From Shigella phage Henu11: 64,000 nt of DNA. Of this stretch, positions 16,797 through 37,901 are shown in pieces (the stretch's first letter is position 1; each line of letters starts with the position of its first letter). Made by a program: the position numbers and the translations under genes. The notes under the pieces are model-generated. The model saw nothing but the letters and a program-made list of their open reading frames with translations, had not been told where the DNA came from and did not search any database. The stretch lies in the sequence record OM953433. One strand, written 5' to 3'.

Positions 16797-16886
16797 TTGA
16801 CACTAAAAACGCAAACAAGTAAAGTATTCATCAACGGGAAGGAAACTTCCCCACTAAACAAAATTCCTAAACTGGAGAATCTGAAA

Positions 16887-17228
16887 ATGGCCTATGTAAC
16901 AATTATCACCGATAAAGAAAATTCGTCATGGTCTACCCAAGTTAACGACAAAATGACACCTATGCAGTGTCTCAAATACTTTGAGCAGTGGAACAGGGGA
17001 GAAGATGTAAGCCCCTTTCAAGTGATGCAGATTGTACATGTTGACAATGAAGGGAATAAAACTACCCTTAACACTGAGTACTATACTACACGTTTCGAGA
17101 CTCGCAAATCAGCTATGCAGGGTTTAAGAGAAAAGGGATATAGTCACATTGCCGCGCTCATTTGGTCTGATTTGCTTAAAAAACAGTCATTAACCTATGT
17201 TAAGCCAGAAAAAATCTTTATAAGCTAA
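16887..17228 (+). CDS. hypothetical early protein
   Basis: ORF track 16797..17228; start moved to the ATG directly after the conserved leader. Confidence 0.5.
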   Translation: MAYVTIITDKENSSWSTQVNDKMTPMQCLKYFEQWNRGEDVSPFQVMQIVHVDNEGNKTTLNTEYYTTRFETRKSAMQGLREKGYSHIAALIWSDLLKKQSLTYVKPEKIFIS

Positions 17229-17564: not shown

Positions 17565-17628
17565 AGTATTTATCAACGGGGAGGGAGACTTCCCCACTAA
17601 ACAAAATTCCTAAACTGGAGAATCTGAA

Positions 17629-18156
17629 ATGAACAAGTTCCAAGCAATTAATCATATCCGTTCCAATGCAGTAATGAGCAAGCCAGTAAAAGACACCTTC
17701 GAATTCCGCTGTAATGATAAGTTGTTTGCAGTCATTACAAAAGGGGAAGATAAAAAGTATTATGTACATCGCCAAAACGTTAAGTTAGTAACAGCAGACA
17801 ACTTTATGAAAGCTGTTGCAACAATCCTACCGGATTTTATGGAACTGGTAGCAGAACTTTGTGAACACTGCATCAAGTCATCAAAGGCAGAATTAAACCG
17901 CTTTAAAATGGCTTATGAGCGTTCTATCAAGTCCCATAACATGTATATCATGCCATTGGCTTTTGGTACTCAGGCAATGGGAACAGGTTGTCATCCTTTC
18001 CACCTTTACGATGTAGAAAGCATTTACCTTAGTGAGTCAAAAGATATTGATTTTAGTTTACAGTTAGGACAAGCATTAAATGATATGATTAAATTACACG
18101 AAAAATCCGTAAAAGATATGCAAAAAGAGCTTGACGAAATCATCGTAAATCTATAA
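17629..18156 (+). CDS. hypothetical early protein
   Basis: ORF track; conserved leader. Confidence 0.55.
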   Translation: MNKFQAINHIRSNAVMSKPVKDTFEFRCNDKLFAVITKGEDKKYYVHRQNVKLVTADNFMKAVATILPDFMELVAELCEHCIKSSKAELNRFKMAYERSIKSHNMYIMPLAFGTQAMGTGCHPFHLYDVESIYLSESKDIDFSLQLGQALNDMIKLHEKSVKDMQKELDEIIVNL

Positions 18157-18216
18157 AGTACTTATCAACGGGGAGGGAATGACCTTCCCCAACAATCCTA
18201 AACTGGAGACTAGAAA

Positions 18217-18798: not shown

Positions 18799-18839
18799 CA
18801 AGTCGCCGCAACGGGGCAAATAGCCCCAGATACCTATAC

Positions 18840-18862
18840 AGCCCCTTCAATGGGGCTTTTTT
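18840..18862 (+). terminator. rho-independent terminator closing the plus-strand early block
   Basis: agcccc-ttcaat-ggggct hairpin plus T5. Confidence 0.65.
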
Positions 18863-19292
18863 ACGTCTTCCTAGAATCTTACCAGACATTTAGAACAATA
18901 ACTCTATAGCTTACTCTATATCCTCTTATCAAATCAACTTAAATATAAGCCCATAACCCGAAAGGGAAGGGCAATCCCTAAAACGCTCTATAACGCTCTA
19001 TACGGGCTTATCATCTCATCTTAAGCAATCATATTAACCTACTCTTAAAAGCCCTTTATAGAGCTTTCTAGAGCCTTAAAAGAATCTTATAAGGGTATAA
19101 GCTTTATTATCTCGTTAGTATCTTGTGAATGGTTAAACAGGGGCTTGAAAGTTACTTAATAATGTGTTATGGGGAACTAAAAAGAGCTTAAAAGTAACGT
19201 AAAAGATGCTTAAAAGTAACGTAAAAGTTAGCCCCCTTTACATTCTCTTAACAAAATCTTAACAAATGCAACATAGTTATGCTTATTAGAGA

Positions 19293-19749
19293 CTTGTTAG
19301 CCCCTTGTTAAATCCTTGTTAGAGGTATGTTAAGAGCTTGTTAGACTCTTTGAAGTCCCTGTATAAGCCCCTAGAAAGCCCTATAAAGAGCTATACAGGC
19401 AATTGGGCTATAGTTACTATGGAGAACCTTAGAAATGGCTGTATAGAGCTATACAGGGCTTTTAAGAGGGCTTTTAAGAGAATCACTGAGAGAGGGAAGG
19501 GAACTATAGACCAAGAGATAGTGACCATGTTAATAGCTTGTTAAAAAGGTTTAGAACTTGTTAGCATCTTGTTAATTATCTTAACAAAATAACTCTTAAG
19601 ATTTAACTATTTAGCAACTTATAAGCAACTTGTTAGACTCTTGTTAGTAATGTTACAGACTTGTTAAGCTCTTGTTAGTTCTGTTAAGAGACTGTTAAGG
19701 ACTTTGAAGAGATGTTAAGAGCTTGAGAGAGTTGTTAAGAGATTGTTAA
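19293..19749. repeat. iteron-like array: at least 19 copies of (C/T)TTGTTA(A/G) phased at about 10-11 bp
   Basis: clusters 19293-19344, 19526-19575, 19629-19749. Confidence 0.7.
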
Positions 19750-20354
19750 TGATATTTTAAGATTTTGCAAAGGGGATGTTACAGGGCTGTTAAGGGCTAC
19801 CAAGCAGATATACACCCTAGACAGATATTTTTCAGTTCCTTCAAAGAACCTAAAAAGTGACCTACCTAGTCTATTTTATAAAAATTTTATAGAACTGAAT
19901 AACTATCTATACACTATCTAGTATAAAACAGGTAATAACAGGCTTATAAGATACCTTGTTAGTACCGTGTTAGACCTTGTAGGATAAGCCTTTACAGGGA
20001 ATACCTGTTTAGTGTTATATAACAGTCTATATAGAGGCTTAGTTGACCCTAGTGAACCATCTGTAGAGAGTACTCTCTGTGACATAGAGATTAAGATGGA
20101 TATAGGGGCTTCTAAGGGGCTATGAAGAGACTAGGAAGGTGATTATATAGGTTTGGAAGAGGGCTTGTTAGAGAGCTTTGTAGAGGGCTATTTAGAAGGG
20201 GCTATATAGTTTCACTAGATAGAGACTAAGAGGCTATATAGATACTATATAATACTATATAGAGAGTATGCTTAGATAGGTTGTTTAGAAGGTCTAGATA
20301 TTTTATCACATATCATGGTGACCCAAGATGAACGGAGTGAATCCAAATTTTATA

Positions 20355-20382
20355 AAATAATAAAAGCCCCAAAAGAGGGGCT
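20355..20382 (-). terminator. rho-independent terminator closing the minus-strand block
   Basis: plus strand taaaagccccaaaagaggggct; on the minus strand agcccc hairpin followed by a T-run. Confidence 0.6.
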
Positions 20383-20391
20383 GTAAAGTTC

Positions 20392-34765: not shown

Positions 34766-34839
34766 TGTGGCCTTATCATAAATGGATAATGACCCATGCT
34801 GTGAACATGGTCTATACGGGTTCGATTCCCGTAGGTCAC
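34766..34839 (+). tRNA. tRNA-His (GTG)
   Basis: acceptor gtggcct/aggtcac; anticodon arm ccatg-ctgtgaa-catgg; T-arm acggg-ttcgatt-cccgt. Confidence 0.7.
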
Positions 34840-34847
34840 CCCAATTT

Positions 34848-34923
34848 AATAGCTCAATTAGCTTATATGGTTAAAGCGCGTGTCTGAAAAACATGAGAAC
34901 AGGGTTCAAATCCCGATGGGCTA
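34848..34923 (+). tRNA. tRNA-Phe (GAA)
   Basis: acceptor tagctca/tgggcta; anticodon arm cgtgt-ctgaaaa-acatg; T-loop ttcaaat. Confidence 0.6.
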
Positions 34924-34941
34924 CCAACTTTATAGGTGCAT

Positions 34942-35677
34942 AATGAAAGAGATGACAGAACAAAGTAAAGAGATTTTTAATCTCCTTAAAACTGGTAATG
35001 GGTTCTCTAACCCTCTTATTACTGGTGCAGCAGTTCTTGGTGGTACTGTAGCTGCTTCTCAATCATTAGTGAACTCAATTAGTTCTGTAACAGACCCTGC
35101 AACACAACAGATTTTAGTTGCTGCTGGACTGACAACAGCCTTATTAGGAAGCTTCACAACAAGCCTTGGAAGTACAACTTCAACGACAAGTACACTCACT
35201 GAGTATGGACAAAAGTCTGTAGATGAGTTTTCACAACGTATGCAAGTAGCTAAAGGTTACTCTAACGTTATGGGAGCAGCAGGTGAACAGGTTGGATGTA
35301 CACCGTTTAGCGGTATCATGGGCGTAGCTACCGAGTACGGTAATAAAGCGATGGATTTGATTAATACCTCCATAGACGCTGTAAATAGCGTCCTAAGCGA
35401 TTTGCAAGATGCAATCGACCAAGGACTAGATACAATCTCTGAACTCGCTACACAGGCCGTTACAGCGATTAATGAGGGTATTACAAAGATTACTGCATAT
35501 GCTAATGAAGTAACTCAGATGATTGCAGATGAAGCAGCACTGATTGCAGAATACCTGAAAACAAATATTAATGGTTTCCTTGCGAATGTTCTACCAAGCT
35601 GGTTTGACGATTCATGTAAAACTGGTGTGATTGATACTATCGCAACTCCAGAGATGAAAGAAGCTCTGAACAAATAA
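34942..35677 (+). CDS. hypothetical Ala/Thr/Ser-rich low-complexity protein
   Basis: ORF track 34880..35677 trimmed to ATG 34942 to clear tRNA-Phe. Confidence 0.5.
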
Positions 35678-35678
35678 T

Positions 35679-35768
35679 GGAAGATTAACCCTAAAAGGTA
35701 AGGGAGCAGTTTGCTAAACTGCCAGTAACCGAGAAATCGGCGTACCAGTTCAAGTCTGGTATCTTCCT
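35679..35768 (+). tRNA. tRNA-Ser (GCT), type II
   Basis: 90 nt; acceptor ggaagat/atcttcc; anticodon arm gcagt-ttgctaa-actgc; T-arm accag-ttcaagt-ctggt. Confidence 0.7.
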
Positions 35769-35778
35769 CCAATTTAAT

Positions 35779-35851
35779 GTATCGGTGACAGAAATGGATA
35801 TGTGCCTGTCTGCAAAACAGGTTTATGAGGGTTCAAATCCCTTCCGATACT
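35779..35851 (+). tRNA. tRNA-Cys (GCA)
   Basis: acceptor gtatcgg/ccgatac; anticodon arm cctgt-ctgcaaa-acagg; T-arm gaggg-ttcaaat-ccctt. Confidence 0.75.
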
Positions 35852-35884
35852 CCAATTTATTAATATCTCTCTCAAAGTTATTAT

Positions 35885-36071: not shown

Positions 36072-36278
36072 ATGAACGAGACTAATGTTTACAAAGAACT
36101 ATATGAAACTCAGAAACAGGCTCAGATGCTTCAAGCAACTGTAATGGCTGTGGCTGAACGTTTAATTGTTGCAACTGGTATTAACCCACAAGAAGCAACG
36201 ATGGATAAACTTCTTAATTTAGTAGATGAAAAGTTTGGTGTAGAACCTAAACAGGAATCTGAAGAAGTTTCTGAATAA
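36072..36278 (+). CDS. hypothetical small protein upstream of terminase
   Basis: ORF track 68 aa. Confidence 0.5.
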   Translation: MNETNVYKELYETQKQAQMLQATVMAVAERLIVATGINPQEATMDKLLNLVDEKFGVEPKQESEEVSE

Positions 36279-36299
36279 TTCTATTTGCAGAGGTGCTTA

Positions 36300-37901
36300 A
36301 TGGACTTAAATGTTATTAAGCAGAAGCGAGTGGAAGATGTAAGGAAAGTCCTAGCAGGTGAGTTGGGGCTTTCTGAAGAAGTAAAAGATATTATCAAATC
36401 CTTTGGTAAAGACCCCTCTAAATTCCTTCCAACTCAAATTCTGACTTTATTAAGGTACACCCCAGACCAAGTAAGACTCATCTTTAAATTGATGACTGAC
36501 AAGAACTATGTAGCTCCACAGCCTGGCTCTCAAGAGGTATTCTTGAACACTAATGCTGACTTGGTACTATATGGTGGTGCTGCTGGTGCTGGTAAGACTG
36601 CTGCCCTATTAATGGACTCACTAAGGTTCATTGAAGACCCAAACTATAATGCTGTTTATTTCCGTCGAAATACAACACAGTTACAAGGTGGTTTGTGGCC
36701 TGCGGCTAAGAAGTTATTTGGTAAGTTTGGTGGAGTTCCACATGAACAGAAAATGACTATCACTTTCCCTTCTGGAGCAACTATCAAGTTTACTTATTTG
36801 GAACTTGAGAAACACTCAGAAGGTCACCAAGGTATCGAATACTCAGCTATTTATTTCGACGAAGGTACACACTTCTCGGCTTCACAGATTTCATATCTTC
36901 AGACACGTTTACGTTCTGGTGCTGAAGGCGACTCATATATGAAAATCTCAATGAACCCAGATAGAGACCACTTTATTTATGATTGGGTAGAACCTTTCCT
37001 AGATGATGCTGGATATCCAGACCCAGAGAAGTGCGGTAGGATTCGTTGGTATGTTATGAATGATGGTGTCATGGTTTCTGATTGGGATAGAGATAAAATT
37101 CTTGAAATGTTCCCTCTTGAGATTCCTCAAACATATACCTTTATTTCCGGTACAATCGATGACAACCCTATTCTAGATTTCCTTGAACCTAAGTATCGTG
37201 GTAAATTAGAAAACAACACACCAGTTAACGTTGCACGTTTACGTTTTGGTAACTGGAAAGCTCGTGCTGAAGGTTCAAACTACTGGCAAAGACAATGGTG
37301 TGAAATTGTTGATAGTGTTCCAGCAGACGTATTTGACGTGAGAGCATGGGACTTAGCAGCAACATTACCTTCTGAGGTTAACCCTAACCCTGACTGGACA
37401 GCAGGTGTTAAAATGGGTAAATCTAAAAAAGATGGTTGCTATTATGTGATTAACGTAGTAAGATTTAGAGATAGACCTTCTGGAGTTGAAACACAAATTA
37501 ACCAAACTGCTGAAGGTGATGGTAAGCGCACAGGTATTTTTATCCCTCAAGACCCCGGCGCTGCTGGTAAATCCTACGCAACCTCCCTTATTAGAAAACT
37601 TGCTGAGAAAGGTTTCCGAGCAAGAGCTAAACCAACAAATAAAGATAAAGTCACCCGTTTTGCGGGTTTCTCTGCTGCTTCTGAGGCAGGACTTGTCAAA
37701 ATTGTTAGAGGCTCTTGGAATGAAGCATATTTCCAAGAACTAGAAGGTTTTTGTGGTGATGGTCGTACTAAGGATGACCAAGTGGATGCTACCAGTGATG
37801 CTTTCAACAGTCTAAACGAAGTTAAACTATTCAAGCCACCTTCAATGGGTGCTCATACAGATATTATGAAGAGTAATCCATATCAGGGGCTAAGACGATA
37901 A
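36300..37901 (+). CDS. terminase large subunit
   Basis: ORF track with start moved to ATG 36300; Walker A LYGGAAGAGKTAA; followed by portal. Confidence 0.8.
   Translation: MDLNVIKQKRVEDVRKVLAGELGLSEEVKDIIKSFGKDPSKFLPTQILTLLRYTPDQVRLIFKLMTDKNYVAPQPGSQEVFLNTNADLVLYGGAAGAGKTAALLMDSLRFIEDPNYNAVYFRRNTTQLQGGLWPAAKKLFGKFGGVPHEQKMTITFPSGATIKFTYLELEKHSEGHQGIEYSAIYFDEGTHFSASQISYLQTRLRSGAEGDSYMKISMNPDRDHFIYDWVEPFLDDAGYPDPEKCGRIRWYVMNDGVMVSDWDRDKILEMFPLEIPQTYTFISGTIDDNPILDFLEPKYRGKLENNTPVNVARLRFGNWKARAEGSNYWQRQWCEIVDSVPADVFDVRAWDLAATLPSEVNPNPDWTAGVKMGKSKKDGCYYVINVVRFRDRPSGVETQINQTAEGDGKRTGIFIPQDPGAAGKSYATSLIRKLAEKGFRARAKPTNKDKVTRFAGFSAASEAGLVKIVRGSWNEAYFQELEGFCGDGRTKDDQVDATSDAFNSLNEVKLFKPPSMGAHTDIMKSNPYQGLRR

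Follow-up and report, generated by a model that had tools for sequence, protein, structure and literature searches.

A phased array of short iterons within the predicted terminal repeat of Shigella phage Henu11, a Felix O1-like phage

The 64,000-nucleotide stretch of Shigella phage Henu11 DNA analyzed here (record OM953433; referred to as the window) contains a non-coding gap at positions 18863-20355 that is flanked by two convergent gene blocks, each closed by a terminator-like hairpin. The question raised by this locus is what function, if any, so large a non-coding region serves. A first-pass annotation, made from the letters of the sequence, described an iteron-dense gap poor in open reading frames (ORFs) and offered a replication origin, a partition site, or a packaging region as its role; it did not recognize the gap as containing the physical genome ends. 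Based on its sequence, the source phage is a member of the Ounavirinae, genus Mooglevirus (Felix O1-like phages), and its closest record is Shigella phage SFPB. From comparison with relatives whose ends are mapped, we assign positions 19231-19801 (within about ±3 nt), with high confidence, as the short direct terminal repeat (DTR) of this phage, present as a single collapsed copy in a circularized sequence. This DTR equivalent also contains a conserved array of short iterons, which are considered below as putative sites for a packaging protein.

The placement of the DTR depends on several phages in which the ends have been defined. In the GenBank record of Escherichia phage Pr103Blw, positions 1-581 are annotated as a "short direct terminal repeat region," and a DTR of 581 bp was obtained for this phage with PhageTerm (PMC8303462). 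This segment aligns to 19231-19801, with position 1 of Pr103Blw (GCCCCCTTAACATT) corresponding to window position 19231 and position 581 (the end of GGGCTACC) to 19801, after which the sequence continues with AAGCAGATATACA. When the same two boundaries were located in phage Ro111lw, the segment between them was 613 bp, an exact match to the published PhageTerm DTR of 613 bp (PMC6454146), and in UAB_Phi87 it was 614 bp, which is 6 bp from the 608 bp measured by Bal31 digestion and run-off sequencing. Two further records each begin and finish with an exact repeat, of 694 bp in phage NBSal004, where it aligns to 19231-19801, and of 444 bp in Erwinia phage M7; window positions 19693-19814 align to M7 positions 323-455 and so span the end of the M7 DTR at 444. 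Several GenBank records begin at about 19231 and others finish at about 19801, often with two matching places per record.

Each of the two boundary motifs is unique in the window and is the same or nearly the same in four genera. The same sequence at both ends, with fixed and non-permuted termini, is seen in the relatives NBSal004, M7, Pr103Blw, and UAB_Phi87; the window has one copy. The Henu11 segment shares with the DTRs of UAB_Phi87, Pr103Blw, Ro111lw, and M7 a homologous sequence, the boundary motifs (a left edge starting with GCCCCCTT and a right edge at which GGGCTACC is followed by AAGCAGATATACA), a position between the same convergent gene blocks, and a near-identical large terminase (TerL). 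It differs in that their ends are mapped, whereas the 571-bp equivalent is placed by homology. A headful pac site of the P1, P22, or SPP1 type was rejected because the ends of these relatives are fixed and carry an exact short DTR, without permutation of the DNA.

Among relatives the DTR ranges from 569 to 694 bp and varies in length through internal tandem expansions. In NBSal004, the extra length (L012, 360-500) stems from a ∼49-bp unit that is located between the second and third iteron clusters and repeated about 3 times. Other reported repeats were set aside as DTRs. The genome of Citrobacter phage KMM2 (OP902295) was called complete on the strength of a "DTR" (PMC10383413). The record ends of KMM2 overlap by only 64 bp, equivalent to window positions 19726-19789 inside iteron cluster 3, and this overlap is probably a product of assembly and not a true terminal repeat of ∼570 bp. 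In the Danish wastewater phages heid and humlepung, the features labeled "repeat_region" are tandem repeats of 35-49 bp.

TerL (36285..37901, + strand; phrog_979, with Terminase_6N and Terminase_6C domains) is the enzyme expected to cut at the DTR boundaries. It is 95% identical in amino acid sequence to TerL of Pr103Blw, which places it in the Felix O1-type, DTR-making lineage, and Bardina et al. assigned this TerL group to a DTR cluster. Because the central 571 bp match the DTR mapped in relatives and TerL is this similar to the Pr103Blw enzyme, the gap as a whole (18863-20355) is, on sequence grounds, a concatemer junction, that is, the genome ends. Comparison with homologous phages, a check that the first-pass annotation had itself proposed, places its iteron clusters inside the segment homologous to the mapped DTR, where terminase cuts concatemers, so its packaging option is supported with respect to genome ends; the iterons themselves are putative packaging sites.

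The setting of the gap is that found in relatives, in which a non-coding region lies between the same two convergent blocks. The rightward block is closed by an intrinsic terminator at 18840..18862 (+ strand; hairpin at 18840-18857, a 6-bp stem with 5 G-C pairs followed by a T-run), and the leftward block is closed by one at 20355..20382 (− strand; hairpin at 20382-20365). These terminators are inverted copies of one module, since 18834-18860 and 20362-20388 are 81% complementary over 27 nt. The gap is kept ORF-free in ∼290 records of Felix O1-like phages, and all four of its ORFs of ≥37 amino acids carry frameshifts or in-frame stops in relatives. One of them, at 19338-19544, had been discounted at first pass, correctly: its frame is already disrupted in SFPB, which is 93% identical. 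A 55-amino acid ORF at 19918-20085 (− strand) is intact in the Mooglevirus phages SFPB and Michonne and broken in Felixounavirus and Suspvirus, and it is probably not a gene, with less certainty for the genus Mooglevirus itself. The sole match in an Rfam scan of the gap was a vertebrate lncRNA model at chance level (E = 0.83; 16 bits, whereas the gathering score is 70). A known non-coding RNA and a coding sequence are therefore excluded as far as the Rfam and ORF conservation tests reach, and the description of the gap as ORF-poor and bounded by two terminators is confirmed. Identity to Felix O1 is 76% in the gap compared with 67-68% in the adjacent genes. In the Felix O1 paper, this site figures only as the place where genes 23 and 24 converge; short terminal repeats were suspected in that phage and not placed.

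The abundance of iterons in the gap greatly exceeds expectation. The exact sequence YTTGTTAR occurs 37 times in the window, with 16 copies in the gap (13 on the + strand and 3 on the − strand) compared with 0.25 expected per strand. The TGTTA core is found 26 times on the + strand of the gap, whereas dinucleotide shuffles average 2.3 copies and never exceed 8; it was on such a comparison with shuffled sequence that the first-pass annotation had staked its claim. Inside the 571-bp DTR equivalent, there are 19 copies of TGTTAR on the + strand and 3 on the − strand (0.57 expected per strand) and 21 copies of the TGTTA core on the + strand (shuffle maximum of 6). Outside it, TGTTAR is absent from the 368-bp left flank (18863..19230) and occurs 3 times in the 554-bp right flank. 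The array is biased to the + strand, which holds 21 of the 24 TGTTA copies. The earlier count of at least 19 copies of (C/T)TTGTTA(A/G) stands for the core, with 19 TGTTA in three clusters, and does not stand for the full 8-mer, which is matched by 11 of these 19.

Neighboring iterons are mostly 11 bp apart, as well as 9 and 20 bp apart, and this mixture of spacings gives a long-range period of ∼10.25 bp (resultant 0.76), close to the ∼10-11-bp phasing noted at first pass. A period of this size places the iterons on one helix face. When self-matches at 10, 11, and 20-22 bp were scored in 637 sliding windows of 300 bp, all 10 windows with z > 3 fell in 18801-20000, and the entire gap can be described as a patchwork of 10-12-bp tandem units.

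Conservation was analyzed across 26 distinct DTRs of 569-694 bp from three genera of enterobacterial phages. In this alignment, conservation reaches 96% for the TGTTA core, 68% for the spacers, and 81% for the DTR as a whole, a contrast to be read with the caveat that aligners tend to stack repeat cores. The DTRs of heid, Felix O1, SUSP1, SUSP2, Michonne, SFPB, Pr103Blw, Ro111lw, and UAB_Phi87 each have 16-20 copies on the + strand in a near-identical series of spacings, and the DTR of Erwinia phage M7 (439 bp) has 11 copies of a TGTTA-type motif on the + strand and 5 on the − strand. The difference between core and spacers, the retention of the motif in M7, and the higher conservation of the gap relative to its neighboring genes argue, at the level of sequence, for specific recognition of the core and not for neutral slippage.

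The DTR itself is an already known element; it is the iteron array inside it that is without a description in the searched literature on Felix O1-like phages, from which the M7 paper was absent. In a scan of IMG/VR for three TTGTTAR at 11-bp spacing, 22 of the first 120 loci were Ounavirinae. Nine of the arrays at the other 98 loci were inspected; each is a simple tandem repeat of a near-perfect 11-mer in an unrelated AT-rich contig and is uninformative about function. Among such viral contigs, L062 (6376-6503), L077 (8613-8707), and L071 (3979-4080) contain 11-bp units with TTGTTAA in almost perfect tandem, 10-12 copies each.

The DTR equivalent (19231..19801, + strand, 571 bp) begins with GCCCCCTTTACATT and finishes with GGGCTACC, each end being uncertain by ∼3 nt. 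Its left edge has three inverted iterons (TTTACA, TTAACA, and TTAACA; 19237..19266, − strand) at 11-bp spacing, the first of them lying 6 nt inside the terminus; the Felixounavirus relatives have TTAACA at all three positions. Cluster 1 (19293..19344, + strand) consists of five TGTTAR at exact 11-bp spacing. It is followed by a central segment devoid of TGTTA (19359..19481) that forms an imperfect dyad, with arms at 19368-19404 and 19433-19469 that are 76% complementary, and that contains two copies each of GAGCTATACAGG, CCCTAKAAAG, and AGGGCTTTTAAG. The least conserved stretch of the DTR, 19400-19439, lies in this segment, as does a sequence at 19439-19456 that had been reported as a perfect 18-bp palindrome and in fact has 8-bp arms around a 2-nt center, with 16 of 18 positions symmetric.

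Cluster 2 (19526..19588, + strand) has four copies on the + strand and one on the − strand, within a region (19520-19599) whose conservation (0.91-0.99) is among the highest. The DNA from cluster 2 to cluster 3 includes a very AT-rich stretch (19572..19611; 15% GC) of a kind that is rare in this DNA, since 40-mers at ≤15% GC make up only 0.05% of the window; it could serve as an unwinding element if the region is also an origin. Cluster 3 (19629..19749, + strand) contains ten TGTTA at spacings of 9, 11, and 20 bp that remain on the same helix face. A deeply conserved block, TTTTAAGATTTTGCAAAGGGG, follows cluster 3 and precedes the last two + strand iterons and the right end. The right-edge block as a whole (19750..19814, + strand) comprises GATATTTTAAGATTTTGCAAAGGGG, iterons at 19777 and 19788, and the boundary between GGGCTACC and AAGCAGATATACA, and it is the only part still alignable with the Erwinia Kolesnikvirus phages.

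When each edge of the DTR equivalent is read inward on the strand with its 5′ end at the terminus, both have the form G..GCCC followed by TTAACA every 10-11 bp. An inverted pair of 11-mers, CAAAATCTTAA and TTAAGATTTTG, was considered as a covarying edge element; it is not claimed as such, because the pair is imperfect in Felixounavirus relatives.

Based on the above observations, the best explanation overall is that the gap is the concatemer junction of a Mooglevirus phage and that the DTR iterons are sites for a packaging protein, a combined reading that we regard as probable without calling it secure. The iterons would be a putative terminase recognition array, an assignment that goes beyond what homology to mapped ends provides. 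The ∼22 TGTTAR iterons in the DTR are candidate binding sites for TerL itself or for an unrecognized small terminase-like partner, and their position on one face of the helix would permit cooperative or wrapped binding. Since the two edges are alike when read inward, one complex could nick opposite strands at both boundaries, with top-strand cleavage at 19230/19231 and bottom-strand cleavage at 19801/19802. A polymerase would then fill in 5′ overhangs of 571 nt, so that every packaged genome obtains a complete DTR, as the classical T7 model has it, and the + strand bias of the array may fix the direction of packaging. The two flanking operons run toward the ends and stop at their terminators, short of the gap, and the rightward block ending at 18840..18862 contains the last genes before the right genome end.

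This proposal has parallels in other phages. The concatemer junction of T7 and T3 has a 160-230-bp terminal repeat, adjacent arrays of short repeats, and pac signals. The Henu11 gap would share with it an exact short terminal repeat duplicated in packaging and short-repeat arrays at the junction, and the staggered-nick and fill-in model is applicable to both. It differs in that no T7-type RNA polymerase or promoter is involved, in its motif, which lies mostly inside the repeat rather than beside it, and in its terminase lineage (Terminase_6). The pac site of P1 contains hexamers, and the pacL and pacR boxes of SPP1 are bound by the small terminase. These systems have several copies of a short motif around the cleavage site that are bound cooperatively by a packaging protein, as is putatively the case here; they are headful systems with permuted ends, in contrast to the fixed ends of relatives of this phage, for which no small terminase is known.

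Several considerations weigh against this explanation. No small terminase (TerS) has been recognized in Felix O1-like phages (PMC3185647, PMC4837284). A single-sequence AlphaFold model of the TerL N terminus had a pLDDT of 43 and was unusable. The ends of this phage are placed by reference to relatives whose identity in the gap is 76-93%, and the M7 record ends are 2-3 nt off the ends defined by PhageTerm, which leaves the exact cut positions uncertain. The symmetry of the edges is imperfect, with 6 nt from the cut to the first TTAACA on the left compared with 8 nt on the right. About 920 bp of conserved non-coding flank, with repeat families of its own, falls outside an account based on the DTR, and the very AT-rich stretches beside the iterons suit an origin equally well.

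A search for a reader of the motif in the terminase region gives limited guidance. No sequence homolog of TerL was found in the PDB. Directly upstream of terL, a 68-amino acid ORF (36072..36278, + strand; phrog_4397 of no assigned function, no Pfam match) is, by its position, a candidate small terminase-like partner. It is 56% identical to its Pr103Blw homolog compared with 95% for TerL, and this difference in conservation, which is only a hint from sequence, fits TerL as the reader of a motif shared across genera.

Because very AT-rich stretches adjoin the iterons, a replication origin stays a live rival, and the first-pass suggestion of an origin is neither established nor dismissed by the present results. 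The iterons and an AT-rich stretch would then constitute an origin within the DTR, alone or in addition to end formation, which we judge unlikely while taking it seriously; a phage or host initiator would act on TGTTAR and open either the 15%-GC segment between clusters 2 and 3 or the one of 12% GC at 19872-19911. Many direct repeats are under selection, the iterons have beside them two 40-mers that are among the richest in AT of the whole window, and no origin has been mapped for Felix O1-like phages in the literature covered. Direct repeats next to an AT-rich stretch are also found in iteron origins such as lambda ori and plasmid oriV, and this is a resemblance only: the units of those origins are ∼19-22 bp compared with 11 bp here, and the Henu11 array lies in a terminal repeat, with no initiator gene adjacent to it. 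The gap has no DnaA boxes or IHF consensus sites, and no recognizable initiator domain is present among the genes that flank it, which leaves room for a novel initiator. The replication genes of these phages (polymerase and primase-helicase; PMC3185647) appear to resemble those of systems that work without iteron-binding initiators. Confinement of the iterons to the DTR and the deepest conservation at a DTR boundary suit end formation better. If the iterons do bind a protein at the ends, it might perform another task there, such as end protection or tethering, pausing of ejection, or pairing of DTRs to form concatemers. Such a task would fit the fixed orientation in which the iterons are expected at the two virion ends, the repeat families particular to the large conserved non-coding flanks, and the terminators that close both neighboring operons short of the ends; no two-step ejection or end-binding protein is reported for the family in the literature covered, and the flanking genes offer no candidate, so we rate this as rather improbable. 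Ejection pausing has reportedly been proposed for the repeat-rich injection-stop region of phage T5.

The remaining explanations are disfavored. That the repeats are neutral products of replication slippage in spacer DNA, with no sequence-specific function, would accommodate the 10-12-bp tandem units of the whole gap, the variation in DTR length through internal expansions, and the simple TTGTTAR 11-mer arrays in unrelated AT-rich viral contigs. We consider it very improbable in view of the 96% conservation of the core compared with 68% for spacers in 26 DTRs from three genera, the motif retained in the Erwinia phage DTR, and a gap that is more conserved than its neighboring genes. The centromere parC of plasmid R1 has two sets of five 11-bp iterons bound by ParR, and the arrays of ∼11-bp direct repeats on one helix face in Henu11 resemble parC in these respects. 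The partition option of the first-pass annotation is nevertheless not supported, because the family is described as virulent and no ParM, ParA, or ParR-like domains are encoded beside the gap; the array is moreover located in a terminal repeat, and a plasmid-type centromere is the least credible of the readings considered.

End formation and replication could also be combined. In Felix O1-like phages, where no small terminase is recognizable, a polar array of ∼20 phased TGTTAR that fills the DTR may be a new kind of packaging signal and may double as an origin in a joint ori and pac module, in which TerL or a tiny unrecognized partner would read the array directly; this is a speculative proposal to which we attach little confidence.

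The flanks of the DTR equivalent have distinct repeat families. The left flank (18863..19230) is unique non-coding DNA that, in the virion, would adjoin the right-end DTR copy on its inner side; it is 0.8-0.97 identical across three genera and has no conserved ORF. It is made of 10-11-bp units (CTATAACGCT and CTTTATAGAG), and two repeats noted in it at first pass were recovered, a ctctata-type repeat as 2.5 copies of CTATAACGCT at 18978-19002 and a 22-bp direct repeat at 19180-19227. Five phased AAAAG tracts at 19180-19228 abut the left DTR boundary. In a wedge model of curvature with Bolshoy-Trifonov parameters, the gap was not exceptional, with a local peak of ∼22 degrees at 19175-19225 compared with a 99th percentile of 23 degrees for the window.

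The right flank (19802..20355), also unique and non-coding, would lie just inside the left-end DTR copy and begins with the conserved AAGCAGATATACA. The most AT-rich 40-mer of the gap (19872-19911, 12% GC) is 70 bp outside the DTR. Two TGTTAG iterons, 155 bp beyond the DTR, fall in a 40-bp block at 19940-19979 that is invariant in six relatives from three genera and might serve as an additional recognition site. Units of GGCTATATAG occur at 20200-20265, and the ctatatag-type units of the first-pass annotation are present as CTATATAG at 20202-20263. A scan of the gap region for sigma-70-type promoters found 11 sites compared with 11.3 in shuffles, and thus no excess. The best match (20171-20142, − strand; CTAACA-18-TATAAT, 10 of 12 positions) points leftward toward the DTR, and its −35 element is a reversed iteron.

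The nine proteins encoded next to the gap have no Rep, O-like, Par, or DNA-binding Pfam domain, and all belong to PHROG families of unassigned function. In the rightward block, the intergenic segments 16809-16891, 17573-17624, and 18154-18191 each align to an intergenic stretch in relatives, and 16809-16891 matches two places in heid; these segments are probably the repeated promoter and terminator modules noted in the Felix O1 paper. A + strand cluster of 26 tRNA genes is located at 30455-35854, as in other Felix O1-like phages.

Taken as genome ends, the largest non-coding region of this genome is explained, rather than being a lapse in annotation. Records of Felix O1-like phages should open at boundaries of the 19231 type and annotate the DTR. 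The TGTTA array provides a concrete candidate for how a terminase with no known small subunit may recognize DNA. Since Ounavirinae are widely used in typing, biocontrol, and therapy directed at Salmonella, Escherichia coli, Shigella, and Erwinia, the signals that form their ends matter for rebooting synthetic genomes, for engineering, and for judging the risk of transduction.

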